This document shows, piece after piece, positions 2,740 to 20,660 of a stretch of DNA of 64,000 nt (its first letter is position 1; each line of letters starts with the position of its first letter). The translations under genes were made by a program, and so were the position numbers. Source of the stretch: an uncultured Bacillota bacterium. GTDB taxonomy: Bacteria > Bacillota_I > Bacilli_A > RF39 > UBA660. The stretch is from NCBI GenBank assembly GCA_948466255.1, contig CAOJZV010000006.1:2521-66520 (forward strand), read 5' to 3'. Below the pieces are notes generated by a model. It saw only the letters and a list, made by a program, of their open reading frames with translations, made no database searches and was not told the origin of the DNA.

Positions 2740-3207
2740 ATGAAGGAAATTGGAGAGCAGTTAAAAACGGCTCGTGAGGGCATCGGTGTTTCAATTGAAG
2801 AAGTAGCCGAAGATTTAAAAATTAGACCAACGCAAATTGAAAATATCGAGGCAGGAAATTCTGAAGCTTTCGATGATGTATTTTATCTGAAATATTTTAT
2901 TCGCGATTATGCAAAATATTTAGGGTTAAATAAAGAAGATTTAGTGGATGAATTTAATGAATATTTATTTGATTATACTTCTAGACTTTCTTTAGACGAT
3001 ATAAAAATGGCAACTAAAGAAAAGAAACCAGCTAAGGCGGTTAAGTCACCATATACTATTGATAAAAGAAATAAAGCTAAAATGATTCCGTTTTTAGTTT
3101 ATGGTTTGATTGTAGCTTTAATAGTGGTTATTGTTTATTTTGTTATTACGTTAAATATAGTAGATGATGATTTTGAGGAAGGGACTGTCATAACTGACAG
3201 AGGTTAG
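2740..3207 (+). CDS. rodZ: RodZ-like cytoskeleton protein (XRE-type HTH plus one TM helix)
   Basis: MKEIGEQLKTAREGIGVSIEEVAEDLKIRPTQIENIEAGN is the RodZ/YmfM HTH, and a C-terminal TM helix follows. The gene order rodZ-pgsA-recA-rny matches Bacillus. The track start at 2638 would overlap rnpB, so the ATG at 2740 with a GGAAGGTAAGG SD is preferred. Confidence 0.75.
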   Translation: MKEIGEQLKTAREGIGVSIEEVAEDLKIRPTQIENIEAGNSEAFDDVFYLKYFIRDYAKYLGLNKEDLVDEFNEYLFDYTSRLSLDDIKMATKEKKPAKAVKSPYTIDKRNKAKMIPFLVYGLIVALIVVIVYFVITLNIVDDDFEEGTVITDRG

Positions 3208-3215
3208 GAGGATTT

Positions 3216-3818
3216 ATGAACACACCTAATAAATTAACAATGTTTAGAATATTTTTGACATTTGTAATAATTGCACTTTTATTATTTCCGTTTTCAGCAA
3301 TGGATATAAATGTTACTCAATTATTTATTAATGAATCATTAAGAGTAGATATTAGATATTTAATTGCGGGTATTTTATTTATTATTGCATCTTTAACTGA
3401 TTTTGTTGATGGCTATATTGCAAGGAAATATAATATGGTTACTGATTTTGGAAAAATGATGGATGCGATTGCGGATAAAATTTTAGTAAATGCGATTTTA
3501 ATTATTTTATGTGCACAAGGATTTATTCATCCAATTATTCCTGTAGTAATTATTTTAAGAGATACTTTTGTAGATAGTATTAAAATGGTTGCTGGTAATA
3601 AGGGTAATGTTGTTGCTGCTAGTAAACTTGGTAAGGTTAAAACGGCTACAATGATGGTAGGGTTAGTTTTAACTTTATTCTATAATTTACCATTTGAACT
3701 TTGGAATCTTAGGGTTTCTGATTTCTTATTAATTTTAGCAACTATCTTATCAGTTATTTCAGGAATTCAATATTATTTAGCAAATAAACATTTATTATTT
3801 GAAGATATGAGGGCCTAA
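3216..3818 (+). CDS. pgsA: CDP-diacylglycerol--glycerol-3-phosphate 3-phosphatidyltransferase
   Basis: CDP-alcohol phosphatidyltransferase motif DGYIARKYNMVTDFGKMMDAIADK in a multi-TM protein. Confidence 0.85.
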   Translation: MNTPNKLTMFRIFLTFVIIALLLFPFSAMDINVTQLFINESLRVDIRYLIAGILFIIASLTDFVDGYIARKYNMVTDFGKMMDAIADKILVNAILIILCAQGFIHPIIPVVIILRDTFVDSIKMVAGNKGNVVAASKLGKVKTATMMVGLVLTLFYNLPFELWNLRVSDFLLILATILSVISGIQYYLANKHLLFEDMRA

Positions 3819-3856
3819 GGCCTTTTTTCTTTTGGAAAAATTTACTAGACACTTTT

Positions 3857-3870
3857 TGAACAAATGTTCG
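3857..3870 (+). promoter_or_regulatory. LexA operator (Cheo box) upstream of recA
   Basis: TGAACAAATGTTCG matches the Gram-positive SOS box CGAAC-N4-GTTCG at 13 of 14 positions. It lies immediately upstream of the recA promoter. Confidence 0.75.
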
Positions 3871-3879
3871 GAAAAAGTA

Positions 3880-3908
3880 TTGACATTTGTTTTTAGATAG
3901 TATAAAAT
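3880..3908 (+). promoter_or_regulatory. Putative recA promoter
   Basis: TTGACA (3880-3885), a 17-nt spacer, then TAAAAT (3903-3908). Confidence 0.5.
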
Positions 3909-3945
3909 GTAATCATAGGAGTTTCAAAGTAAGGAGGAAAATAAA

Positions 3946-4965
3946 ATGGCAAAGACTGCTGATACTGATCAAAATTTAAAACAGGTTTTATCTGATATAG
4001 AAAAACAATTTGGGAAAGGGTCAATTATGCGTTTAGGAGATGATGAAAAACGTGAAATTGATGTTGTACCTAGTGGAAGTATTGCGCTTGATGTTGCGCT
4101 TGGAATCGGAGGTTATCCAAAAGGGAGAATTATAGAAATATATGGACCTGAATCTAGTGGTAAAACTACTTTCGCATTACATGCGATTGCAGAAGCTCAA
4201 AAACAAGGTGGAAAGGTTGCATTTATTGATGCAGAGAACTCATTAGATCCCCAATATGCTGAAAGATTAGGAGTTAATATTAATGATTTATTATTATCGC
4301 AACCTGATAATGGTGAACAAGCTTTAGAAATTGCTGAAGCTTTAGTTAGAAGTGGGGCAATTAGTGTTATTGTAATTGATTCTGTTGCAGCTTTAGTTCC
4401 ACAAGCTGAAATTGAAGGTGAAATGGGTGATTCCCACGTTGGACTTCAAGCTAGACTTATGAGTCAAGCTTTAAGAAAATTAGCTGGAATTATCAACAAA
4501 ACTGGAACTGTGGCTATATTTATTAACCAATTACGTGAAAAAGTGGGAGTTATGTTTGGGAATCCAGAAGTTACTCCTGGTGGACGTGCACTTAAATTCT
4601 ATTCTTCTATAAGACTTGAAATTAGAAGAAGTGAACAAATTAAAATGGGAACTGATATTATTGGTAATAAAACTAATATTAAAGTGGTTAAAAATAAAAT
4701 GGCCCCTCCATTTAAAACTTGTTCTGTAGATATTATGTATGGAACTGGTATTTCTATGGAAGGTGAACTTATTGATTTAGGTGCCGAGGCTAATATTTTA
4801 GAAAAATCTGGTGCATGGTATGCATATAAAGGTGAAAAAATTGGCCAAGGTAAAGAAAATGTTAAAGAATATTTGAAATCTAATCCTAAAGTTAAGGAAG
4901 AAATTAATAAAAAGGTTCGTGAATATTTTAATATTACTAAAGCAAGTGAAAAAGAAAGTAAATAG
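3946..4965 (+). CDS. recA: Recombinase RecA
   Basis: Walker [10 protein letters not shown], plus [14 protein letters not shown] and the rest of the canonical RecA sequence over its full length. Confidence 0.98.
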
Positions 4966-4973
4966 TTTTAAGC

Positions 4974-4999
4974 AATATGTTTATACATATTGTTTTTTA
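4974..4999 (+). terminator. Intrinsic terminator after recA
   Basis: CAATATG / CATATTG stem with a 6-nt loop, followed by T6. Confidence 0.6.
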
Positions 5000-5130
5000 T
5001 TTATGCTTTTTTTAATTATTGTTAATAAATGGCTTGTTCTGTTATTTATTTTTCTTGACTTATTTAGTAATCCCTTATAAAATAGAATTAGGTGATGAAA
5101 TATGTCACTTATAGTTATGGAGGTAATAAT

Positions 5131-8928: not shown

Positions 8929-11229
8929 ATGGTTGATACAGAAGAAACTTTAGCAACTTTGAAAGTTGTAAAACGTAATGGAAAAAAAGTAGAATGGAAT
9001 GGGACTAAAATTGCAGTAGCAATAAAAAAAGGATTCGACAGTGTTAAAACTGAAGATGAAGAAAATAAATATACTGAAAAAGATATTAATAAAATATTTA
9101 ATGCAGTTGTAAAAAGAATTGAAAAAGAATATTTAGCTGATGAAAAAATTAAAATTGAACAAATTCAAGATTTAATTGAAGAAGAACTTCATAAAAAAGG
9201 ATATGAAGATGTTTATAAATCATTTTCTGAATACCGCGTGCGAAGAAATATGTCTAGACAAATGTTCTTTGGTGAAAAAAAACAACATAAATTCTTAAAA
9301 GCGATTGAAAATTTAGGTTTAAAATCAGCGCATGAGGAAGATGCGAAAAGGGAAAATGCTAATGTTGATGGTGATACAGCAATGGGAACTATGCTTCAAT
9401 ATGGAAGTACTGTTTCTAAAGAATTTGCGAAAGCTTATTTAATGAAACCTAAATTTGCTGAGGCTCATGACAATGGTGATATTCATATTCATGATATGGA
9501 CTTTATGCCAATGGGAACTACTACTTGTTGCCAAATCGATTTAAAGAAATTATTTGATAAAGGTTTTTCTACTGGACATGGTCATTTAAGAGAACCTCAA
9601 GGTATTATGAGTTATTCTGCATTAGCTGCTATTGCTATTCAGTCTAACCAAAACGACCAACACGGTGGGCAAAGTATTCCAGCATTTGATTATTATTTAG
9701 CGCCTGGTGTACTTATTACTTTTAAAAAACAATTTAAACAAGCAATTTGTGATTATTTAGATTTTACTGAATTTGGTAATTTTATCAATATGGATAGAAT
9801 TGCTAAAGATATTGATAAAATAAAATCTATTGAAGTTGATTTAAATGAATTTGATGGATACGCTAAAGGCTCTGAAGAAGTTAAACGTTTATTTAAAGTT
9901 GCTTATAAAAAAGCTTTAGCAAAAACTGATAGGGAAACTTATCAAGCTATGGAAGCATTTATTCACAATTTAAATACAATGCATTCTCGTGCCGGAGCTC
10001 AAGTTCCATTTTCATCTATTAACTTTGGAACTGATACTTCAGCTGAAGGTAGAATGGTAGTTCGTAATTATTTACTTGCTACTGATTCTGGGCTTGGTAA
10101 TCATGAAACACCAATTTTCCCAATTTCTATATTTAAGGTTAAAGAAGGGGTTAACTATAATCCAGAAGATCCTAACTATGATTTATTTAAATTATCTTGT
10201 GAGGTTTCTGCTAAGAGATTATTCCCTAACTTCTCATTTATAGATTCTACATTTAATAAAGCTACTTATAATCCAGATGATTATAGAACTGAAGTTGGTT
10301 ATATGGGATGTAGAACAAGAGTACTTGCTGATATAACATCGCCTGATAATCAAATTACTCCAGGAAGGGGTAACTTATCATTTACTTCAATTAACTTACC
10401 TAGATTAGGTATCAAACATGGACAAGTTAGTGGTGAACTTGATATGGATGCATTTTATGCTGAACTTGGAGAATTAATGGATTTAGTTAAAGATCAATTA
10501 CTTGAAAGATTTGAAATTCAATGTTCAAGACATGTTTATAATTTCCCATTCTTACTTGGGCAAGGTGTTTGGATTGACAGTGAAAGATTAAAACCTGGTG
10601 ATAGATTAAGAAAAGTTTTAAAACACGGTACTTTAACAGTTGGGTTTATCGGCCTTGCTGAATGTTTAGTAGCTTTAACTGGTAAACATCATGGTCAAAG
10701 TGAAGATTCTCAAAAATTAGGTTTAGAAATTATTGAATTTATGAGAAAAAGAACTGATGAGTACGCTCAAAAATATAATTTAAATTTCTCTTTAATTGCT
10801 ACACCTGCTGAAGGCTTATCTGGAAGATTTACTAATATAGATAAAGCAGTTTATGGTAAATTAAAAGGAATTACTGATAGAGATTATTATACTAATTCAT
10901 TCCATGTTCCTGTTTATTATAATATTTCAATAGCTAGGAAACTTGAATTAGAAGGACCTTACCACAACCTTACAAATGGTGGTCATATTAGTTATGTTGA
11001 ACTTGATGGTGATACGGCTATGAATACTGATGCATTTGAAAAAATTGTAAGACTTATGCATGATAATAATATTGGGTATGGAGCAATCAATCACCCAGTT
11101 GATAGAGATCCAGTATGTGGATATACAGGGGTTATTGGAGATGTTTGTCCAGGATGTGGACGTAGAGAAGGCGAAGGCGTTCCAATTGAAAGAGTTAAAA
11201 ATGCAGATTTAACTTGTTGCGGAAGATAG
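8929..11229 (+). CDS. nrdD: Anaerobic ribonucleoside-triphosphate reductase (class III RNR) body, lacking the glycyl-radical motif
   Basis: N-terminal ATP-cone (VVKRNGKKVEWNGTKI) and an NrdD core (GTTTCCQIDL, NLSFTSINLPRLG, ATPAEGLSGRF, CPGCG Zn-ribbon). The ORF ends at TAG 11227-11229 before any RxxGY motif. Confidence 0.9.
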   Translation: MVDTEETLATLKVVKRNGKKVEWNGTKIAVAIKKGFDSVKTEDEENKYTEKDINKIFNAVVKRIEKEYLADEKIKIEQIQDLIEEELHKKGYEDVYKSFSEYRVRRNMSRQMFFGEKKQHKFLKAIENLGLKSAHEEDAKRENANVDGDTAMGTMLQYGSTVSKEFAKAYLMKPKFAEAHDNGDIHIHDMDFMPMGTTTCCQIDLKKLFDKGFSTGHGHLREPQGIMSYSALAAIAIQSNQNDQHGGQSIPAFDYYLAPGVLITFKKQFKQAICDYLDFTEFGNFINMDRIAKDIDKIKSIEVDLNEFDGYAKGSEEVKRLFKVAYKKALAKTDRETYQAMEAFIHNLNTMHSRAGAQVPFSSINFGTDTSAEGRMVVRNYLLATDSGLGNHETPIFPISIFKVKEGVNYNPEDPNYDLFKLSCEVSAKRLFPNFSFIDSTFNKATYNPDDYRTEVGYMGCRTRVLADITSPDNQITPGRGNLSFTSINLPRLGIKHGQVSGELDMDAFYAELGELMDLVKDQLLERFEIQCSRHVYNFPFLLGQGVWIDSERLKPGDRLRKVLKHGTLTVGFIGLAECLVALTGKHHGQSEDSQKLGLEIIEFMRKRTDEYAQKYNLNFSLIATPAEGLSGRFTNIDKAVYGKLKGITDRDYYTNSFHVPVYYNISIARKLELEGPYHNLTNGGHISYVELDGDTAMNTDAFEKIVRLMHDNNIGYGAINHPVDRDPVCGYTGVIGDVCPGCGRREGEGVPIERVKNADLTCCGR

Positions 11230-11241
11230 GAGGATATAAAA

Positions 11242-11403
11242 ATGAAAGCAGAAGAAAAAAAAGTTGGCGAAGGAGTTAAATTCGAAAGAATTAGAAGAAT
11301 TACTGGTTATTTAGTAGGAACTACTGATAAATTTAATAACGGTAAAAGAGCCGAAGAACAAGATAGAGTTAAACATGATGCTTCTAAAATAATTTCAAAA
11401 TAA
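11242..11403 (+). CDS. Stand-alone glycyl-radical domain peptide of NrdD (53 aa)
   Basis: Not in the ORF track because it is under 60 aa. Translation: MKAEEKKVGEGVKFERIRRITGYLVGTTDKFNNGKRAEEQDRVKHDASKIISK. This is the class III RNR C-terminal motif (RxxGY...FNxGKxxE...RVKH). An AGGAGG SD lies 8 nt upstream. The ORF is in the same frame as nrdD and its TAA overlaps the nrdG ATG (TAATG). Confidence 0.75.
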   Translation: MKAEEKKVGEGVKFERIRRITGYLVGTTDKFNNGKRAEEQDRVKHDASKIISK

Positions 11404-11954
11404 TGAAAATTCGTTTAGCTAGTGATTTACAATCAGATAGTATTGTAGATGGTGAAGGAATTAGGACAGTTATTTGGACGCAAGGTTGCTCTCATAACTG
11501 TCCTGGTTGCCATAATCCGGCCACTCATGATTTTAATGGCGGATTTTTAACTGATACTGATGAAATAAATAAGGAATTATCTTTATTAAAAGCTCAAACA
11601 GGCATTACTTTTTCTGGTGGTGATCCACTATTTCAAGTGGAAGCTTGCACAGAAATAGCAAAACATGCTAAAAAAATTGGTATGAATGTTTGGTGCTATA
11701 CAGGATTTACTTTTGAAGAGTTAATTAAATCTAAAAAGAATATAGAGTTTCTTAAATATGTTGATGTATTAGTTGATGGTAAGTTTATCATGGCAGAAAG
11801 AAGCTTAAATGTTGATTTTAGAGGTTCACGTAATCAACGTATTATTGATGTACCAGCTTCATTAGAAGAAAGTAGGGTAGTTTTAATACCTAAATATATT
11901 GGTGAAAGATATGTTGATGTAAGCATTCCTAAAAAAGAACATATTTATATATAA
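11403..11954 (+). CDS. nrdG: Anaerobic RNR activating protein (radical SAM)
   Basis: CxxxCxxC cluster motif GCSHNCPGCHNP. Size and position are typical of NrdG. Confidence 0.9.
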   Translation: MKIRLASDLQSDSIVDGEGIRTVIWTQGCSHNCPGCHNPATHDFNGGFLTDTDEINKELSLLKAQTGITFSGGDPLFQVEACTEIAKHAKKIGMNVWCYTGFTFEELIKSKKNIEFLKYVDVLVDGKFIMAERSLNVDFRGSRNQRIIDVPASLEESRVVLIPKYIGERYVDVSIPKKEHIYI

Positions 11955-11973
11955 AAGCCTTATGGCTTTTTTT
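11954..11973 (+). terminator. Intrinsic terminator after nrdG
   Basis: AAAGCC-TTAT-GGCTTT hairpin followed by T7. Confidence 0.7.
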
Positions 11974-11979
11974 GTATGC

Positions 11980-12022
11980 GATTTGCATTTTCTAAGAAAA
12001 TTGTTATAATACTATGCAAATC
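11980..12022 (+). promoter_or_regulatory. Strong promoter of the islet operon, bracketed by a 9-bp inverted repeat
   Basis: TTGCAT (11983-11988), a 16-nt spacer, then an extended -10 TGTTATAAT (12002-12010). The arms GATTTGCAT (11980-11988) and ATGCAAATC (12014-12022) are perfect inverted repeats. Confidence 0.5.
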
Positions 12023-12035
12023 AAGGGGGTATTTT

Positions 12036-12146
12036 ATGATTGCGTTAACTGATGTGGAAAGAAAGATATTGAAATATAAAATGTTATGCTTTGGATATGA
12101 TGAATATGAAACTACTTTTTTGAAACAGATGAGTATAAAAGATTGA
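12036..12146 (+). CDS. Possible 36-aa leader ORF of the islet operon
   Basis: ATG follows a GGGGG SD. Translation: MIALTDVERKILKYKMLCFGYDEYETTFLKQMSIKD. There is no homology evidence, so it may be non-coding. Confidence 0.25.
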   Translation: MIALTDVERKILKYKMLCFGYDEYETTFLKQMSIKD

Positions 12147-12154
12147 GGATAGAT

Positions 12155-13015
12155 ATGTTAGATAATCTACCTGTTTTAAATGATGAACGTCTAAAATTTA
12201 AATTTTGTGATAAAAGTGAAGTGCTTAGTGCTGGGAGATATGTTTTGGATAAACATTGTGATGGAATAGATTTAAAAATTCCATATACTAATGGTGATGA
12301 TTTAGAAACACAAATAATTAGCCGTTTTGGAGAAAAACCTTCAGTGGAAAGTTATGATGAAATTATTGAATATATAAAAAATAATATTGAACTAGTTAGG
12401 GTAACCGATATACCTTTATATTTAGATAGTTATAAAGAACGAAATGGATCTACTACAACAACGTGCTTTTATTCAAGTAAAGATTTAGAAGAATCCTTTT
12501 TTGAAAAGCTTCCGGTTTGTACACATAGAATTAGTATTTTTGGCCCATGCGATGAGTTTGCAAAAACCACATATGTTCATGAAATGTATCATGCTTTACT
12601 GAATAGGAATAAAGGTAGTTTGAGAAATTTGTTGAATAAAGAATTCTTATCGATTTTTATGGAAAAAGTAGCAGCTTATGATTTAGATAATTCTGGCAAT
12701 TTGTTTGAATTAAGAAATCTTTATAGACTGCTTTCAATAAAGGAAAACATAATTGAAAAAACTCGTGAAGAATTTAATACCCGAAATGCAGAAAGTATTA
12801 CGAAAAATGAGAGCTATATAATATCGGGATTATTGGCTACTGATTTATTTAATACATATTTGAGAGGTTCAAATAAGCTAAAAAAAGAAATTGATTTATC
12901 AATTAATGAAGTTTTAATGGGTAATGGCGTTATTGAAGATGTTATTGATAAATATGAAGTGACTTTAGAAAAAGGTTCTAAAATAATGAAAAAGCAGATA
13001 AAACATTTTAGTTAG
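12155..13015 (+). CDS. Hypothetical protein with an HExxH zinc-metallopeptidase motif
   Basis: VHEMYHAL motif in a ~286-aa soluble protein. ATG 12155 follows a GAGGA SD. The family was not recognised. Confidence 0.55.
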   Translation: MLDNLPVLNDERLKFKFCDKSEVLSAGRYVLDKHCDGIDLKIPYTNGDDLETQIISRFGEKPSVESYDEIIEYIKNNIELVRVTDIPLYLDSYKERNGSTTTTCFYSSKDLEESFFEKLPVCTHRISIFGPCDEFAKTTYVHEMYHALLNRNKGSLRNLLNKEFLSIFMEKVAAYDLDNSGNLFELRNLYRLLSIKENIIEKTREEFNTRNAESITKNESYIISGLLATDLFNTYLRGSNKLKKEIDLSINEVLMGNGVIEDVIDKYEVTLEKGSKIMKKQIKHFS

Positions 13016-13321
13016 GATTATAATTAAAGATAGTATTGCATTTATACTGTCTTTTTTGTAAAAAACATTTAAAATAGTTGATTTATTATGTGGATATTTG
13101 ATATACTAAAACTGGTTAAAGGGCTAGTACAGACTTTGATTTAGTTTGTGCTATTTTTTTGTATATAATGAATTATATACAAAAATAAATAATGATTAAT
13201 TTGTTTAAAATATAAAAAAAATAGAAAAATTTATCAGATTACGAAGTATTTGTAAGATCTATCAACTTAGTTTTTAACGAGGTTTTATAGTTGTAAAGTT
13301 GGGGGTGGTATTATTAAAAAT

Positions 13322-14725
13322 TTGAATAAACTTTTTGAAGGAATAAAAGCAATTAATCATGCCGTTTGTGAAACATCAAAAAGGCAAAGACTTTCTATTA
13401 ATAATGATGAATTTAATTCTGATTCTATTATACAAATATTAGAACACATAAATTATATTAAAAGTTTTTCTTTATCTGATACTCAGTTAAAAATTATTAT
13501 TAATACTCCTAAAGTAACAGATGATGCAATTTTGTTAATTTTTGAATCAATAATTTATTATGTATTAAAACATGAAATTTGTGAGATAAGTTATACTTTT
13601 GTATTAAACAAACAATTAATTGGGTATAAAATGTTTAAAATGAGCAATTTATATAAATATAACACTAAAGTTATTGATAAAGATAGTTTCATAATGGATT
13701 ATGAACAAGATTATGTGTTTAAAAAACATTATAGAAAGGTTTGTAAATATTCTTTCGAAAATGTGTATAATGAATATTTATCAGTTATTCTTACTGATAT
13801 ATCTTCGTTTTTTAAAAACTGTAATATTTATGAAAAATATGCTGATGACTTATCCGAAGCTATTGCGGAAATTATTGGCAACGCTTTAGAACATTCTAAT
13901 GACAATTGTATTTTGGATATTAAAGTTTTATATGATGATTATAAAAAATATAAATTTATTAATGTTACAACTTTATCTATAGGAGATGTTTTTGTGGGGA
14001 ATAAAATAATTAATTATGTTGAAAATCCAAATAATAATTGTTATAATAGTAGTAATCAGATTGTTTTGGATGCATATAATAATCATAAAAGTAAATTCGA
14101 TGAATTATATGATTTGTCGTCTTTCGCACTTGTTTCTGCTTTTCAGAAATATGTTACTACACGGTTTGATTCTGTTAGCTCTGGTGGAACTGGATTAACA
14201 ACATTAATTCAACAATTAATCGATAAATCAGATGGTGATTATTGTTATTTGCTGACAGGAGACAATGTTATATATTTTAAGGATGAATATTTAAAACTAA
14301 CAGATGATGGTTTGATAGGATTTAATAAGTCAAACGATTATATTGAACAACCACCTAGTGATGATGTGGTAAAAAAAGTAAAAAACAAGCTTAATGTAAC
14401 AATATATAGCTTACAATTTATGTTAAAGGAGGATGAACCTATGAATAGAATAGAATTAGATTTTAATAAAACGATAACTGGTTTGGCTGGTAATCTTTAT
14501 GGGGTTACTGAATATAATAAACAAGCTAAGGATAAATTTGATTGGAATGGTATGAATGAGATTATTTTCCCAAATCATATTACAAAAGTTAGTATTTCTT
14601 TTGTTCAAGGATTCTTTAAAGAGATACTAGAAAAAATTAATAAAGAAGATATTGATGATTATGTTACAATTAAAACTTCGGCAGACGAATTAACTGAAAA
14701 GATAATAGGAAATATAAAATTTTAA
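13322..14725 (+). CDS. GHKL/histidine-kinase-like ATPase fused to a C-terminal STAS-like (DUF4325-like) domain
   Basis: N-box EIIGNALEHS and G2-like SSGGTGLTTL. The C-terminal ~90 aa (IELDFNKT...IIFPNHITKVSISFVQGFFKEI) resembles, from memory, the STAS-like DUF4325 module. The start codon is uncertain: TTG 13322 lies 13 nt after GGGGGTGG. Confidence 0.5.
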   Translation: MNKLFEGIKAINHAVCETSKRQRLSINNDEFNSDSIIQILEHINYIKSFSLSDTQLKIIINTPKVTDDAILLIFESIIYYVLKHEICEISYTFVLNKQLIGYKMFKMSNLYKYNTKVIDKDSFIMDYEQDYVFKKHYRKVCKYSFENVYNEYLSVILTDISSFFKNCNIYEKYADDLSEAIAEIIGNALEHSNDNCILDIKVLYDDYKKYKFINVTTLSIGDVFVGNKIINYVENPNNNCYNSSNQIVLDAYNNHKSKFDELYDLSSFALVSAFQKYVTTRFDSVSSGGTGLTTLIQQLIDKSDGDYCYLLTGDNVIYFKDEYLKLTDDGLIGFNKSNDYIEQPPSDDVVKKVKNKLNVTIYSLQFMLKEDEPMNRIELDFNKTITGLAGNLYGVTEYNKQAKDKFDWNGMNEIIFPNHITKVSISFVQGFFKEILEKINKEDIDDYVTIKTSADELTEKIIGNIKF

Positions 14726-14726
14726 T

Positions 14727-15182
14727 ATGACTATTTTTGAGATTATATATGTTATTTTATTAGTTTTAACTTTAGGCATGTCTATAATTTCTCTTAAGGT
14801 TTCTTTAGCTGTTAGCCAAAAAGATCAGGCAATAAAAATAAGAGAAAAATATTATGATGAAATTTTTAGTGAAATGATAACAAAAAAAATTCCTTATCTA
14901 TATAATAAATTTGTGAATAAGGAAATTGGCAATATAAATGTTAGTATTTCTTCTAAATTTGAAAAAGAAATCGGTTTTTTTAGAGAAAAAATTAGATTTT
15001 TGGAATTTAATTACCCTAATTTTTATAAAGAACTTGATTCGCAGCTAATAGATCTTGATGATAAAGTTGTTTTACTTAGTACTAAACCAGAAAATGTTCA
15101 AAGACTTATTCCTGAGTTTTATGATGGAATTTCAAATGTATATAGACTTGTTGAAAGATTTTATACAAAACATAAATTGTAG
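14727..15182 (+). CDS. Hypothetical small protein with an N-terminal TM helix
   Basis: 151 aa, with the start 1 nt after the stop of the upstream gene. N-terminal hydrophobic helix IIYVILLVLTLGMSIISL. No known motif. Confidence 0.5.
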   Translation: MTIFEIIYVILLVLTLGMSIISLKVSLAVSQKDQAIKIREKYYDEIFSEMITKKIPYLYNKFVNKEIGNINVSISSKFEKEIGFFREKIRFLEFNYPNFYKELDSQLIDLDDKVVLLSTKPENVQRLIPEFYDGISNVYRLVERFYTKHKL

Positions 15183-15316
15183 TAATTATTAATATTTTTA
15201 TATTCGTTATTTTAAAAGTAATTGTATAATTGCTTTTTTATATGCAGGTATATTTTAAGGAATTTAAATAAAAATTAAAAATTTAAATAAAAACTATTCC
15301 ATTTTTCGACAAAATG

Positions 15317-15387
15317 TGCTACAATGTAATTGCAGTATGATTTATGTTTTTAGCTGTAGACAGCCTGTAGTTTGGGCTGTTTTTTTG
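15317..15387 (+). promoter_or_regulatory. trpS leader: extended -10 promoter followed by an intrinsic terminator
   Basis: TGCTACAAT (15317-15325), then an ACAGCC/GGCTGT hairpin (15360-15380) followed by T7. This lies about 50 nt upstream of the trpS SD. No T-box sequence is present. Confidence 0.4.
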
Positions 15388-15438
15388 TTTTGATTTATGT
15401 TATACTTATTTATAGTTTAATTAAAGGAGAAATGTTTT

Positions 15439-16419
15439 ATGAAAAAAGTGTTAACTGGCTTGCAACCAACAGGAGAAATAACTTTAGGAAATTATATAGG
15501 TGCGATTAAACCAATGACTAAATTACAAGATGAGTATGATTCTTATTTATTTGTTGCGGATATGCATTCTATAACTGTAGCTCAAAATCCTAAAGAACTT
15601 AGAAATAATATTAAAAAATTACTTGCTTTATATTTAGCTTGCGGAATTGATCCAAATAAAAATACTATTTATATTCAATCAGAAAATGAATATCATACAA
15701 ATATTTCTTGGCTTTTAGAATGTACTACTTACTTTGGTGAACTATCTAGAATGACACAATTTAAAGATAAAAGTAAGAAAAATGCTAATTTTAGCTGTGG
15801 ATTATTTACTTATCCAGTGTTAATGGCTGCTGATATTTTAGCTTATGACATTGATTATGTTCCAGTTGGAATCGATCAAAAACAACATGTTGAACTTACT
15901 CGTGATATTGCAGATAGATTTAATAAAAAATATGGCGATACTTTTAAACTTCCAGAGCCACTTATTAGTGAATCAGGAACCAAAATTATGGATTTAACTG
16001 ATCCTATTCATAAAATGAGTAAATCAGGAGATAATGAAAAAGGTATTATTCGTATGTTAGATGAACCAGAAGTAATTCGTAAGAAAATTATGGGAGCAGT
16101 TACTGATAGTGAAGCTACTGTTAAATTTGATATGGAAAATAAATCTGGAGTATCTAATTTAATGAATATTTATTCAGCAATTACTGGTAAAACTAATGAA
16201 GAAATAGAAAAAGAATTTGAAAATTGCAATTACGGTGAATTTAAAAGAAGTGTGGCTGATGTAGTTGTAGCTGAAATAAGCGCGATTCAAGAAAAATATT
16301 ATAAAATTATCAACGGAAATGAACTTGATGAAATCTTAGATAAAGGAATTAATATAACTAGAAAGATTGCTAAAGAAAAATATGAAGATATGAAAAATAA
16401 AATGGGATTAGGTAGATAA
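15439..16419 (+). CDS. trpS: Tryptophan--tRNA ligase
   Basis: Class I motifs: TGEITLGNYIG in the HIGH region and KMSKS. Size is typical at 326 aa. Confidence 0.95.
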   Translation: MKKVLTGLQPTGEITLGNYIGAIKPMTKLQDEYDSYLFVADMHSITVAQNPKELRNNIKKLLALYLACGIDPNKNTIYIQSENEYHTNISWLLECTTYFGELSRMTQFKDKSKKNANFSCGLFTYPVLMAADILAYDIDYVPVGIDQKQHVELTRDIADRFNKKYGDTFKLPEPLISESGTKIMDLTDPIHKMSKSGDNEKGIIRMLDEPEVIRKKIMGAVTDSEATVKFDMENKSGVSNLMNIYSAITGKTNEEIEKEFENCNYGEFKRSVADVVVAEISAIQEKYYKIINGNELDEILDKGINITRKIAKEKYEDMKNKMGLGR

Positions 16420-16541
16420 TAAAGTTTCTTAATAAATTAAGGGACTTTTTTCTTTACGAATTTTGTCATTTAAAGTTGCATTTTTTTTAAAACCTGCTAT
16501 AATACGTTTATGTAGTATGTTGTATTATAGGGGGAATTTAA

Positions 16542-18473
16542 ATGAACAAATTACAAAAAACAGGTTATCCTTCAATGGATAGAAATCATGAGGATTGTTT
16601 TGGCTCTGATTTTTTAGAAACAGAAATGCCAAAAACTACTTTATATGATTATATATATGAAGAAAATAAAAATCGTTTGGAGTTGCCAGCTATCAATTAT
16701 TTTGATAATAAAATTTCTTATAGAAAGTTTTTAGAAAATAGTGATACGGTAGCAAGAGCATTAAACCACTATGGGGTAAAAAAAGGTGATACTGTAACTG
16801 TAGTAGCTCCTAGTTTACCAGAAACCTTTTATATTCTTTTGGGAGCTAGTAGAATAGGCGCAATAGCTAATTTTGTTGATCCAAGATATGGAGAAAAGGC
16901 GATTGAACATAAAATTAAAGATTCAAAATCTAAAATTGTAATCGCATTTGACGGTGCTGTAAAAACTTTTAATAGAAGAACAAAACAATATAAAAAACAA
17001 CACGTTTTAGATAAAATAGGTAATATTTTAAAGAATACTGATGTGGAAGCTGTTATTAGTTTACCAGCTAGTAACTCTATTGGCTTAATATCAATCATAA
17101 AAAATGATACTATAAGAGCTGCAATGTTTGATAGACAAAAAAGTGAATTTAAGGATACTTATTCATGGAAAGAATTTTTCAAAACGGGAAGTTTTAGTCG
17201 TAATTTAGTGTTCCCAGAGCATGAGATTGATATTCCAGTAGCTGTTGTATCAACTGGTGGATCTACTGGAACACCTAAAAGTGCTTTATTTTCAAATGAA
17301 AACATTATCAGTGCAACAATGCAATGTCGTTTGACGGGGATATTCCCAGAAGAGGCAAGATGGTATGATATTATGCCACCTTCAATTGCATATGGTTTAG
17401 CTGATGGATCAATTTTGCCTTTCTCATTAGGTAATGAGGTTAGAATTAATCCAGATCCAACTGCAATGAGTTTAAGAAATCCAAAACAATTACAAATGGT
17501 AGAGGATTTAGTGAGGTTTGATCCACATACATTAGCATGTGCACCAAACCATGTACTAGCTATTTTAAATAGCAAAGAATGGAAGAATAATCCACATAGT
17601 ATGATTAATTTTATAGTTGGTGGAGATTCATTAAATAAAGAGCAAATACGTAGATGTGATGAAATGTTACAAAATTTGAAACGTCCTTCTAATTTTGATA
17701 AAGAGCGTTTACTTGGTGAACGTGAAGATATATTAACAATTAATACTGGATGGGGTGCTACTGAAACTACTGCTGCTGCTAGTGTGGCAAGAGGTAGTGA
17801 AAAAGTAAAAGAAGGAACGGTTGGACAAACTTTACCTTATGAAGTTGTAAGTACATTTAGAAAAAATGAAGAAACAGGAGAATATGAAGAATTACCTTAT
17901 GTACCTAATGACCAAATAGAAAATGTTACAGAAGATCAGATTGCAGAACTTTGTGTATCTGGACCAAATGTGATGTTAGGTTATCTTAACAATCCAGATG
18001 AAACAGCTAAGGCTATTATTGAACATCAAGATGGAACAAAATGGGCACACAGTGGGGATTTAGGATTTATAGATGAAGATGGTTATGTTCACTTTATTGA
18101 TAGGGAAAAATATATTAGTGTTAGACATGATGGATTTAAAGTTACTCCAGTTGAAATAGAAGATGTAATTTTAAAAGATGATAGAATTGATGCGTGTAAA
18201 GCAGTTATATTTGATGACCCTGAAGAAGATAGAGGAACTGTTATAAAAGTTTACTACACTTTAAGAGATGCTAGTAGTGACATAAAAGATGTTGAAGAAA
18301 CTGCAAACTTAATGTGTGAAATGGAACTTGCTGATTATAAATGTCCTGTGGACTATGAATGTATGGAAAAATTGCCAATTACTAATTCAGGAAAAATTGA
18401 TGTTATGACTTTAAAAGCTGATGCTGAAGCAAAAGCTAGAAAAGGAAAACAATATATTAAAAAAAATATATAG
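16542..18473 (+). CDS. AMP-dependent synthetase/ligase (acyl-CoA/acyl-AMP ligase family), long form
   Basis: STGGSTGTPK AMP-binding motif, plus GWGATET and SGDLGFIDEDGY. 643 aa. Confidence 0.8.
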   Translation: MNKLQKTGYPSMDRNHEDCFGSDFLETEMPKTTLYDYIYEENKNRLELPAINYFDNKISYRKFLENSDTVARALNHYGVKKGDTVTVVAPSLPETFYILLGASRIGAIANFVDPRYGEKAIEHKIKDSKSKIVIAFDGAVKTFNRRTKQYKKQHVLDKIGNILKNTDVEAVISLPASNSIGLISIIKNDTIRAAMFDRQKSEFKDTYSWKEFFKTGSFSRNLVFPEHEIDIPVAVVSTGGSTGTPKSALFSNENIISATMQCRLTGIFPEEARWYDIMPPSIAYGLADGSILPFSLGNEVRINPDPTAMSLRNPKQLQMVEDLVRFDPHTLACAPNHVLAILNSKEWKNNPHSMINFIVGGDSLNKEQIRRCDEMLQNLKRPSNFDKERLLGEREDILTINTGWGATETTAAASVARGSEKVKEGTVGQTLPYEVVSTFRKNEETGEYEELPYVPNDQIENVTEDQIAELCVSGPNVMLGYLNNPDETAKAIIEHQDGTKWAHSGDLGFIDEDGYVHFIDREKYISVRHDGFKVTPVEIEDVILKDDRIDACKAVIFDDPEEDRGTVIKVYYTLRDASSDIKDVEETANLMCEMELADYKCPVDYECMEKLPITNSGKIDVMTLKADAEAKARKGKQYIKKNI

Positions 18474-18562
18474 AATAATGAATAATATTCATTATTTTTT
18501 CTTTGTAAAAATTTACATCCGAATTGATAAATGTTATAATGATAATATAGGAGGTATAGGAT

Positions 18563-20398
18563 ATGGTTATTGGTATATCGGTAATATTATGCTGTTTATT
18601 ATATAGTTTTGTGCTTGCTGTAATATATTTTTCAAAAACAAGACTTAAAACAATTGATAATAAAGTATATAGTATTTTAGTAATTATAAATATATTTGGA
18701 TTAATTTTAGAATTACTTTGTTGCTATTTTACATACATGAATGGGACCTCAAATTTTAATAGTTTTATGTGTTTTTTCTGTAATAGATTGTTTATTATTT
18801 ATATGCTTACATGGCTAACAGTTTTTACTTTTTATATTTTTTCTATTACATTTGGTAGTAAAAACAAATCAAATGCAGATAGGGAAAAAAATCAGAAAAA
18901 AAATATTAAAATTGCAGTTATTATATATTTGTTTTGTTTGATACTTTCTTTAGTATTGCCATTGGAATGTTTTAGTGATGGGAAGTATGTCTATAGTTAT
19001 GGCCCTGCAACTAATATGCTGGTTGTATTTGGCGGGCTTAGTATTTTATTTGATATATTTTGTGTGATAAAAAACAGAAAATTTATTAATAAGAAACAAT
19101 CCTTACCATTATTTGTATTAATTTTATTGATGATTGGCGTTTTAATTATTAGAAATATAAATCCAGGTATAATTTTAATTAATTCTACATTTGCCTTTAT
19201 AACTTTCTTTATGTATTTTACAATTGAAAATCCCGATGTTCAAATGATTGGTGAGCTTTATAAAAATAGAAAAATAATTGAAAAATCGAATGAAGATACA
19301 TCTAAATTTATTTTTAGAATGACTCAGGATATTAAAAAACCGTTAAAGGATATCATCTCAATCAGTCATGATATGATTAGTATAGATAATGTTGATGAAT
19401 TAATATCTGCTAGTAAATATATAAATAATTATGCGAACCAAATTGATTATTTAATGAATAAGGCTTTAAATATTTCTAATATGGATACACAAAGTATTAA
19501 AGTATTTGATACTAGGTATAATGTTAAAAATTTATTTAAAGAAGTTTCATTTAGAGCTAAAGAAGATATAAAACCTAATCTTGAATTTGATTTTAATATT
19601 AGTGATAATATTCCAACGTATTTATATGGTGATTCTATAAAATTAAAACAGGCTGTTTCGTCAGTTATAAATATTGCGAATGATTTTACAAAAGAAGGAT
19701 TTATTTCATTAGATGTAAGTTCGATTGTAAGATATAATATGTGTAGATTAATTATTACTATTGAAGATTCTGGTAAAGGAATTGGAATCGATAGAATAAA
19801 TCAAATCTTAAGTTTAACTGGTGATGATTTAAAAGATATAGCTGACACAAATTCTGATGATAGAAATTTAGATATTTTAGCTGTTAAAAAGGTTGTTAAT
19901 ATGTTAGGTGGCTCTTTAATGATAAAGAGTGAAGAAGGTGTTGGAACTACTGTAACTATTATTCTTGAACAAAAAGTAGTTGAGACAAAAGAAACTGAGC
20001 TTTCTAAAAAATTAGAAAGTTATGAACAATCTTTATATGGTGAGAAACAAGTTTTAATTGTTGATGACGATGAAAAAGAACTTGATAAAATTGAAAAGCA
20101 AATTAGTTCTGATGGCATTATGGTTAGTTCATCAGTATATGGAAGAGATGTTATTGAAAAAATTAGATCTAAATTAAAATATGATTTAATTATCTTAGAT
20201 GATGAACTTGGGGAGACTAGTGCTTTAGAAGTTCTTAAAGAGTTACAACAAATTAAAAACTTTAAAACACCAGTAGTAGTTATGATTAATGATAATAAAG
20301 AAGGAATTAAACTTCAGTATTTAAAAGATGGATTTGCTGATACAATAAGTAAATCAAAACTTGAATCAGAAATTGATAGAATTATGAAAAGATTTTAA
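18563..20398 (+). CDS. Hybrid sensor kinase-like protein (multi-TM, degenerate H-box, HATPase, receiver)
   Basis: About 6 TM helices at the N-terminus. The H-box position reads FRMTQDIKKPL, with Q where His is expected. N, G1 and G2 boxes are present (DSGKGIG, GGSLMIKSEEGVGTT). The C-terminal receiver has VLIVDDDE and DLIILDD. Confidence 0.75.
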   Translation: MVIGISVILCCLLYSFVLAVIYFSKTRLKTIDNKVYSILVIINIFGLILELLCCYFTYMNGTSNFNSFMCFFCNRLFIIYMLTWLTVFTFYIFSITFGSKNKSNADREKNQKKNIKIAVIIYLFCLILSLVLPLECFSDGKYVYSYGPATNMLVVFGGLSILFDIFCVIKNRKFINKKQSLPLFVLILLMIGVLIIRNINPGIILINSTFAFITFFMYFTIENPDVQMIGELYKNRKIIEKSNEDTSKFIFRMTQDIKKPLKDIISISHDMISIDNVDELISASKYINNYANQIDYLMNKALNISNMDTQSIKVFDTRYNVKNLFKEVSFRAKEDIKPNLEFDFNISDNIPTYLYGDSIKLKQAVSSVINIANDFTKEGFISLDVSSIVRYNMCRLIITIEDSGKGIGIDRINQILSLTGDDLKDIADTNSDDRNLDILAVKKVVNMLGGSLMIKSEEGVGTTVTIILEQKVVETKETELSKKLESYEQSLYGEKQVLIVDDDEKELDKIEKQISSDGIMVSSSVYGRDVIEKIRSKLKYDLIILDDELGETSALEVLKELQQIKNFKTPVVVMINDNKEGIKLQYLKDGFADTISKSKLESEIDRIMKRF

Positions 20399-20417
20399 GC
20401 CTTAATGGCTTTTTTTC
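20397..20417 (+). terminator. Intrinsic terminator
   Basis: AAGCC-TTAAT-GGCTT hairpin followed by T7. Confidence 0.65.
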
Positions 20418-20660
20418 TTTACACTTTTGCAAATATTGTCAGTCTTTGAAGAAAATTACTTATTATATATTTTTTAAATATGTTACTTTTGACATACATA
20501 GTTATTTATTTAGATGATGTTAACTAGTTTACATACTTTTTCATAAATGTAAAACAAAGTAAGAATAGTTAATATAAATAATGTTATAATAAATATAAGG
20601 ATAATCTATGAAAAATTATAGAAATATGTTAAAATGTTAATATATGGAGGAGCGGTTAGG

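Follow-up and report, generated by a model that had tools for sequence, protein, structure and literature searches.

A GHKL kinase, DUF4325/STAS and membrane protein cassette beside a resident HExxH gene in an uncultured RF39 bacterium

We examined the region between nrdG and trpS in a 64,000-nt stretch of DNA (the window) from an uncultured Bacillota bacterium (GTDB lineage RF39; UBA660; assembly GCA_948466255.1, contig CAOJZV010000006.1, positions 2,521 to 66,520). An original prediction, made from the sequence alone, had described positions 11980-15182 as one accessory islet with three products: an HExxH protein, a GHKL ATPase fused to a STAS-like domain, and a small transmembrane (TM) protein. 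Its three open reading frames (ORFs), promoter, 9-bp inverted repeat, terminators and ~300-bp gap are all located as claimed, but the locus is composite. One element is the HExxH gene, resident, FRAMESHIFTED and independent of the cassette next to it; the other, starting at about position 13019, is a horizontally acquired cassette of a widespread, unnamed family. Its genes are here called A, B and C, and in the window A and B are fused. We hold this anatomy (the composite locus, the three-gene cassette, the fusion and the domain identities) with high confidence. The features, in window coordinates, are:

11403-11954, + strand: nrdG (ORF list)
11953-11970, + strand: terminator-like hairpin of nrdG
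11980-11988 and 12014-12022: perfect 9-bp inverted repeat bracketing the HExxH-gene promoter, a possible operator
11982-12010, + strand: promoter-like site of the HExxH gene (TTTGCA-17-TATAAT with TG)
12036-13015, + strand: HExxH (gluzincin-like) gene, resident, outside the cassette, split by a -1 frameshift
12036-12146, + strand: N-terminal 36-codon piece of the HExxH gene
12143-13015, + strand: 290-aa ORF of the HExxH gene (290 aa from TTG, 286 from ATG), containing VHEMYHAL
13019-13321, + strand: left boundary region of the lineage-specific segment, also the cassette's upstream region
13078-13107, + strand: promoter-like site upstream of gene A
13125-13153, + strand: terminator-like hairpin upstream of gene A
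13156-13185: perfect 14+14 palindrome upstream of gene A
13322-14725, + strand: fused A-B ORF, 467 aa
13322-14440, + strand: gene A part of the fused ORF, a ~168-aa N-terminal domain followed by a SpoIIAB-type GHKL kinase/ATPase domain
14426-14432, + strand: Shine-Dalgarno sequence AAGGAGG of gene B, kept within the fused ORF, 8 nt before the B ATG
14441-14725, + strand: portion corresponding to gene B, joined in frame to A, a DUF4325/STAS domain of 94 aa
14727-15182, + strand: gene C, 151 aa, with one N-terminal TM helix and a ~110-aa helical domain, putative effector
15358-15382, + strand: terminator-like hairpin between the cassette and trpS
15439-16419, + strand: trpS (ORF list)

The HExxH stop codon and the fused ORF are separated by a 306-bp gap (13016-13321), and the ATG of gene C lies 1 nt past the A-B stop codon. 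GC is 0.21-0.27 from about 12750 to 15500. The AT-richness already remarked on in the original prediction is clear for the cassette proper, which at 23.8% GC against a window median of 27.9% ranks 10th lowest among 311 windows of the same size; its third-position GC is that of the host genes. An Rfam scan of both gaps matched no T-box and no other riboswitch, and such elements were rejected on that ground. The palindrome upstream of A (TTTTTGTATATAAT-GA-ATTATATACAAAAA) has an arm length reached in only 2 of 2000 composition-matched shuffles; it may be an operator or a bidirectional terminator, but it is absent from the other cassette loci, and we therefore rejected it as a conserved operator of the system. 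An 18-nt direct repeat (17/18 identical) flanks the cassette at 13313-13330 and 15274-15291. We did not accept it as an insertion scar, a rough estimate putting it at about chance level in AT-rich DNA.

The usual cassette consists of three genes: A, a GHKL kinase of ~378 aa; B, a DUF4325/STAS protein of ~95 aa; and C, a protein of ~150 aa with one N-terminal TM helix. The 467-aa ATPase-STAS protein is indeed a fusion in the window, as first described, but this is a lineage-specific state. Its 53 word-index homologues are nearly all 370-395 aa long and cover just its first 80%, and at all other loci examined the C-terminal part is a separate gene B of ~95 aa, set off by a different frame or by a stop codon. 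B comes directly after A in 15/15 other loci where the contig continues, and a 143-166-aa protein with one N-terminal TM helix comes after B in 14/14. (Searched alone by word index, B found one relative only; the scan of genome contigs gave only six loci.) Identity to the window copy is 22-50% for A, 34-69% for B, which also has one 94% near-copy (P0084), and 15-39% for C, the fastest diverging of the three. A 375-aa gene upstream of the cassette in locus L008 was considered as an A paralogue and rejected on comparison.

The A-B junction takes several forms. In L005 it reads AAGGAGGATAAAAATGAAAGATAA, with the A stop codon past the B ATG and in a different frame; in L042 and L040, A and B share a frame and a stop codon is their sole separation. 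In the window (AAGGAGGATGAACCTATG), A runs into the B ATG (14441), and the Shine-Dalgarno sequence of B is kept. We saw the in-frame fusion in the window lineage alone, and no protein of fusion length occurs among the best 150 A-family representatives (242-403 aa). The fusion is real, since two other, independent studies, one of them of rat gut, yielded contigs with the same gap-free junction. The simplest origin that we infer from these junctions would be loss of the stop codon from an L042-like arrangement. An in-frame fusion is evidence of the Rosetta-stone type that A and B act as a physical pair. Free B may also be made alongside the fused protein, from the retained internal Shine-Dalgarno sequence and ATG.

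Taken singly, the window proteins gave no meaningful match to Pfam, NCBIfam, PHROGs or PADLOC; the domain identities come from family members and structural models. For the A+B alignment, homologues were mapped to their own halves, anchored by read-through rows from L042 and L040. At the family level, 10 of 14 B members match DUF4325 (PF14213, "STAS-like domain of unknown function"; best E = 5.7e-5), while the window B itself has no Pfam DUF4325 match, and 15 of 30 A members match HATPase_c weakly. The AlphaFold2 (AF2) model of the A-B fusion (pLDDT 89.4, pTM 0.78) bears out at the fold level the earlier calls of a GHKL ATPase and a STAS-like domain. Foldseek against the PDB returned SpoIIAB (1TID, 1L0O) at prob 1.0 with a TM-score on target of 0.65-0.69, and also SiaB, UsfX and the STAS partners RsbV and RsfB (entries include 6M36/6M37, 8IH8 and 6KKO), with the STAS chains matched to the model as a whole and not to one of its domains in particular; the SpoIIAB, UsfX and SiaB matches lie at prob 0.96-1.0. 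Against the BFVD viral models it returned DUF4325 proteins, that of Bacillus phage PBS1 at prob 1.0 (TM-score on target 0.72, 26% identity), and a phage HATPase protein.

Invariant residues of A include E183, N187 and H191 in the N-box and G289-x-G291-L292 (GGTGL), and the lowest-confidence part of the model, residues 281-290, falls at the expected position of the ATP lid. Residues ~1-168 of A form a separate domain of alternating strands and helices in the model. Serine 53 of B (residue 426 of the fusion) is invariant in 14/14 B proteins, within the motif I-S-F-V/I-Q-G-F, and is modelled at the N-terminus of the second STAS helix (fusion residues 425-431). A serine there is the site phosphorylated in SpoIIAA and CapS (PMC13373217), and on the model S53 is at the canonical phospho-acceptor position. 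The B proteins, 93-100 aa long, end with the last STAS helix, and no extra C-terminal tail is evident.

The 151-aa C product is anchored at its N-terminus, as originally described, by one hydrophobic helix. Throughout the family this single N-terminal TM helix is always kept and is followed by basic residues and a helical domain; because basic residues follow the TM helix, the helical domain is probably cytoplasmic.

Phages themselves encode stand-alone DUF4325/STAS proteins that match B structurally, namely A0A223LC21 of Bacillus phage PBS1 and A0A8D9CC01 of a marine phage. One might speculate that these serve as decoy substrates against kinase-STAS defence switches.

The A family is large, with 558 clusters at 50% identity (312 at E<=1e-30) among 1.84 billion representatives, and uniform in length across clusters. 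The cassette is nevertheless rare, patchy and mobile: it occurs in 0/24 congeners, in 3/399 genomes of the phylum and in 3/172 genera. No copy has an annotation more informative than "hypothetical" or "DUF4325 domain-containing". In eight of ten annotated neighbourhoods it lies beside restriction-modification (R-M), abortive-infection (Abi), Thoeris-TIR, AIPR, Cas9 or SLFN-helicase genes. The loci and plasmids with their neighbours are:

L005: DpnII-type R-M and Mrr, with Cas9 ~3 kb away
L008: Bsp6I R-M, MazG-like and SLFN-type helicase genes
L039: relaxase, DUF3427 helicase, NUDIX, SLFN helicase and TnpV genes
L040: phage-like gene run with a recombinase
L041: resolvase, relaxase, Dcm with a Type II restriction endonuclease, and ASCH
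L042: AbiEi, ThsB-TIR, DpnII R-M and AIPR
L043, Lactococcus cremoris plasmid pG327 (triad at 3118-5015): directly after hsdS, with an mREase-like gene next
Enterococcus faecium Inc18 plasmid: cassette near Fic and an Abi gene
Lachnospira eligens ATCC 27750 megaplasmid: cassette near an Abi gene

No SpoIIE/PP2C phosphatase gene was present in the cassette gene tables or neighbours examined. Nor was any sigma-factor gene adjacent to the A-B pair in these loci, the sole one seen being ~4 kb off in L039. PADLOC-DB v2.0.0, whose models include lactococcal Abi systems, gave no meaningful match for A, B or C of the window, Lactococcus, Enterococcus or Lachnospira copies. AbiR and other lactococcal Abi systems, considered for the plasmid location and the GATC R-M neighbours, were rejected on the same ground that no PADLOC model matches.

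Two further observations concern cassette copies elsewhere. (i) An intact A-B-C triad is also carried by three other L. cremoris plasmids, and these small mobilizable dairy-lactococcal plasmids make a convenient culturable model. (ii) A split A-B-C copy in L004 (genome G027) is flanked by a DUF4062-domain protein (4134-5117, minus strand, E = 3e-28) and several large unannotated proteins, surroundings that may be another uncharacterised island.

The HExxH gene has a different history. Its homologues are 326-331 aa long, not 290, and their first ~36 residues align with 12036-12146; the stretch originally taken for a 36-aa leader ORF is thus the true N-terminus of the gene, cut off by a frameshift. 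At that point the alignment reads YETNFFKTDEYKRLRIDM in the homologue P0055 and YETTFLKQMSIKD followed by a stop codon in the window, with RIDM resuming in the next frame, and the genome search likewise scores the gene with one internal stop. The window has a run of six T residues (T6) at 12116-12121. Contigs of an independent study (run X4) have one extra T after 12115, making T7 and restoring an intact frame (YETTFFETDEYKRLRIDM), while run X1 is broken like the window. The break is therefore a strain-specific homopolymer frameshift, and by its sequence the gene appears inactivated or N-terminally truncated in the window strain by a change from T7 to T6. The T6/T7 polymorphism may reflect nothing more than decay or, in a genome this small and AT-rich, on/off variation by strand slippage. 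The 9-bp inverted repeat at the HExxH promoter is not conserved in the independent strain.

That the gene is resident is seen in a close human-gut relative (L046), which has the same order nrdD-nrdG-HExxH at 94.6% nucleotide identity over window positions 9214-13018. Homology to it runs through the HExxH stop codon and ends at 13018, three bases beyond, so that the islet does not hold together as one unit. The HExxH family is genus-restricted (16/24 congeners, 0/16 more distant genomes) and multi-copy, often in tandem pairs, with a paralogue elsewhere in the window genome. Copies occur in unrelated contexts: in one setting def and an ABC-F gene adjoin, in another the neighbour is an HTH_3 gene and the carrier a Mob_Pre/resolvase element.

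H182, E183, H186 and E210 are invariant across 27 sequences of the family. It has no Pfam match and no PDB sequence match, and a profile search of PDB sequences stayed at chance level. The AF2 model of an intact relative (pLDDT 94.6) has only M3/M4 gluzincins as consistent Foldseek neighbours, with weak scores: E 0.12 and prob 0.89 for Pz-peptidase A, and a TM-score of 0.40 for neurolysin, within a range of 0.38-0.40. Like these M3-family oligopeptidases, the protein has an invariant HExxH and a Glu 24 residues downstream; unlike them, it is about half-size (326 aa), genus-restricted and multi-copy. We read its product as a predicted compact, cytoplasmic, gluzincin-like peptidase. The copy on the Mob_Pre/resolvase element (L025, 5001-6463) is convergent with a double-HTH_3 gene. 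This recalls protease-repressor pairs of the ImmA/ImmR type, though the HExxH fold looks M3-like, not M78-like.

The original prediction likened the composition of the islet to a phage-defence or abortive-infection module and could match it to no named system. Comparative context (R-M, Abi, TIR, AIPR, Cas9 and SLFN-helicase genes, plasmids and prophage ends) upholds the likeness for the ATPase/STAS/TM set, though not the inclusion of the protease; and PADLOC has no match, although a close published analogue does exist. In the systems described by Chambers et al. (EMBO J 2026; PMC13373217), the kinase CapK (HTH-STAS-GHKL) is switched on by single-stranded DNA (ssDNA) and phosphorylates a conserved Ser of CapS, a repressor composed of STAS and winged helix-turn-helix (wHTH) domains. 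In the related VapK-VapS-VapC set, the kinase phosphorylates a STAS antitoxin, the PIN toxin is released, and protection against phage Bas42 reaches about 2 logs (PMC13373217). CapKS often lies just downstream of R-M systems, and transmembrane effectors are unmentioned in the VapKSC paper, with 0 occurrences (PMC13373217). DUF4325 genes were earlier found coupled to a VapC subgroup (PMC5499597).

The likeness of the cassette to VapKSC is close. Both have three co-directional genes, for a kinase, then a small STAS protein, then an effector (putative in the case of C); the kinase is of the anti-sigma GHKL type; the STAS partner has an absolutely conserved Ser on helix 2; there is no phosphatase; and other defence genes and R-M systems occur nearby. 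There are also differences. The third gene of the cassette encodes a ~150-aa single-pass membrane protein rather than a PIN nuclease. VapS has a short C-terminal region blocking the toxin, and B has no such inhibitory tail that is evident. VapK's N-terminal STAS domain forms an ssDNA groove with a conserved aromatic, and the N-terminal domain of A is not demonstrably the same. No sequence-level similarity is detectable, A and B are fused in the window, and the sampled taxa are Firmicutes. With CapK/CapS the cassette shares the pairing of a GHKL kinase with a STAS substrate and the frequent position just downstream of R-M. It differs in that CapK carries an extra N-terminal HTH, and in that CapS adds a wHTH to its STAS domain and keeps an immune operon downstream repressed, while B consists of STAS alone and has C as the next gene. 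The cassette would thus work like VapKSC and CapKS but belongs to neither, because it has no PIN toxin and no CapS wHTH. The analogy suggests a relative of the anti-phage system VapKSC, so far undescribed, that has a membrane effector. We note also that the annotation table of the Francisella prophage KIRK contains an unremarked run of HP-293, DUF4325-112 and TM-125 adjoining cI.

We lean towards reading the cassette as a kinase-gated conflict system acting in phage defence or abortive infection, with C as its effector. A would be a serine kinase of the SpoIIAB/RsbW-like GHKL type with an N-terminal sensor domain. In the uninfected cell, unphosphorylated B would keep C, or the contact between A and C, inactive. 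A cue from phage infection or DNA damage would activate A through its N-terminal domain, and A would then phosphorylate Ser53 of B, changing its partner binding. This phospho-switch would free C, the membrane would be damaged or depolarised, and infection would be aborted. The switch would be one-way, because no phosphatase gene accompanies the cassette. In an alternative wiring, A would hold C, and unphosphorylated B would displace it.

Several points weigh against this reading. The defence role is drawn from neighbourhood and analogy, and the main caveat of context is that in the window itself the cassette has trpS, an AMP-binding ligase and a hybrid kinase for neighbours, none of them a defence gene. 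A is a predicted kinase whose G1 box (DxGxG) is degenerate. Its N-terminal domain has no PDB sequence match, and hhalign showed no profile similarity between it and B (probability 0.2). Profiles of A and B gave only chance-level matches to PDB sequences, a result that covers VapS and CapS if these were in the copy searched. C has no recognisable toxin domain (no match in Pfam, in PADLOC or to PIN), and it could be an anchor or sensor instead of an effector.

A bolder form of the conflict-system reading, which we put forward tentatively and would not expect to hold in full, is that the triad constitutes an unrecognised, widespread abortive-infection system of Firmicutes. Its anti-sigma-type Ser kinase, equipped with a sensor domain of a new kind, would act on a minimal DUF4325 switch and so set free a small effector that damages the membrane; in the natural fusion of this bacterium of the mouse or rat gut, the switch would work in cis, within a single-chain kinase-substrate sensor.

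Two other accounts are unlikely, though each has evidence behind it. The first takes the cassette to stabilise plasmids, prophages and islands as a toxin-antitoxin or addiction module, in which C is the toxin and B or A-B the antitoxin, with no dedicated anti-phage role. Carriage on plasmids, on elements with relaxase or resolvase genes and at a prophage-like end fits such a module, as do the small, tightly coupled genes, and the analogue VapKSC is itself a toxin-antitoxin system. The cassette is, however, found repeatedly among defence genes (R-M, Abi, TIR, AIPR, Cas9) and not just on mobile elements, and simple addiction has no need of a kinase sensor; addiction and defence roles are in any case compatible.

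The second, which we consider similarly improbable, makes A, B and C an ordinary partner-switching module, comparable to SiaB/SiaC, SypE/SypA or the cyanobacterial Hep-layer module, and one that controls a membrane protein as part of a stress or envelope response that has nothing to do with phages. SpoIIAB-SpoIIAA, RsbW-RsbV and SiaB-SiaC are the best structural matches for both domains, with the kinase N-box and the STAS serine kept. These top matches, SiaB-SiaC included, are housekeeping pairs; STAS switches do regulate targets other than sigma factors; and the neighbours in the window are metabolic or signalling genes. A has an extra ~168-aa N-terminal domain that SpoIIAB, RsbW and SiaB do not have. 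Unlike canonical modules, the cassette has neither a sigma-factor nor a PP2C partner, has a membrane protein in third place, and is mobile and patchy. Against this account, with no PP2C gene in any table or neighbourhood examined, the switch would not be reversible, and the extreme patchiness (given above for genomes and congeners) and the mobile elements are atypical of physiological regulators.

It is much less probable still that A-B is a CapK/CapS-like transcriptional controller of neighbouring genes. The published relative CapKS often follows R-M, as the cassette does at several loci, and the window has its perfect palindrome upstream of A. Yet the 94 aa of B make up a STAS domain and nothing more, lacking the wHTH by which CapS is defined; what invariably follows B is C and not an immune operon; and the palindrome is not conserved elsewhere. 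Finally, the adjacency of the HExxH, ATPase/STAS and TM genes on one strand of an AT-rich stretch in the window had suggested a single three-component defence system, protease included; this can be dismissed as almost certainly wrong. In homologues 0/16 cassette loci carry the HExxH gene and 0/6 HExxH loci carry the cassette. The HExxH gene also sits in the conserved nrdDG block, with homology breaking off at 13018, is served by a promoter and a terminator of its own, and has a frameshift in the window.

Should the conflict-system reading hold, partner-switching would serve bacterial immunity as a general logic for sensing, and its effectors would be interchangeable. This kinase/STAS chemistry, familiar from the control of sporulation and stress sigma factors, was shown only in 2026 to gate a nuclease toxin, and a small membrane protein would be its second, more common output. 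The A family is large and wholly "hypothetical", and it occurs on plasmids of dairy Lactococcus, in which resistance to phages is of practical use. As a natural construct, the single-chain A-B fusion supports a direct A-B interaction and could ease biochemistry and structural work. The picture of the locus is also corrected, the HExxH gene being unrelated, resident and strain-variably frameshifted.

The view of an islet between two conserved loci needs correction: the cassette is lineage-specific, but nrdG-trpS is not a conserved junction among close relatives, and the genes after nrdG vary. Among the closest species, a GNAT gene and a different type of trpS come after nrdG in G046, and lysS does so in G007; in the human-gut relative L046, APH-like, NUDIX, MazG-like and RelA/SpoT genes come after the HExxH gene. 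The gene order comes back into line with the nearest genome, G007, only at window position 20634, and the intervening segment (11955-20633) contains, besides the cassette, trpS, the AMP-binding ligase and the hybrid kinase/receiver gene. Because the genes after nrdG differ in each close relative, the region past nrdDG-HExxH is a breakpoint prone to recombination, which holds several lineage-specific items, the cassette among them.

The trpS gene at 15439-16419 is the only trpS copy in the window genome (68% complete), and no T-box was detected upstream of it. Identity to the trpS genes of most congeners is only 33-38%, and of 30 congeners sampled no more than 4 have a close homologue over the full length (62-69% identity). 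This is an apparent xenologous replacement of a housekeeping synthetase.

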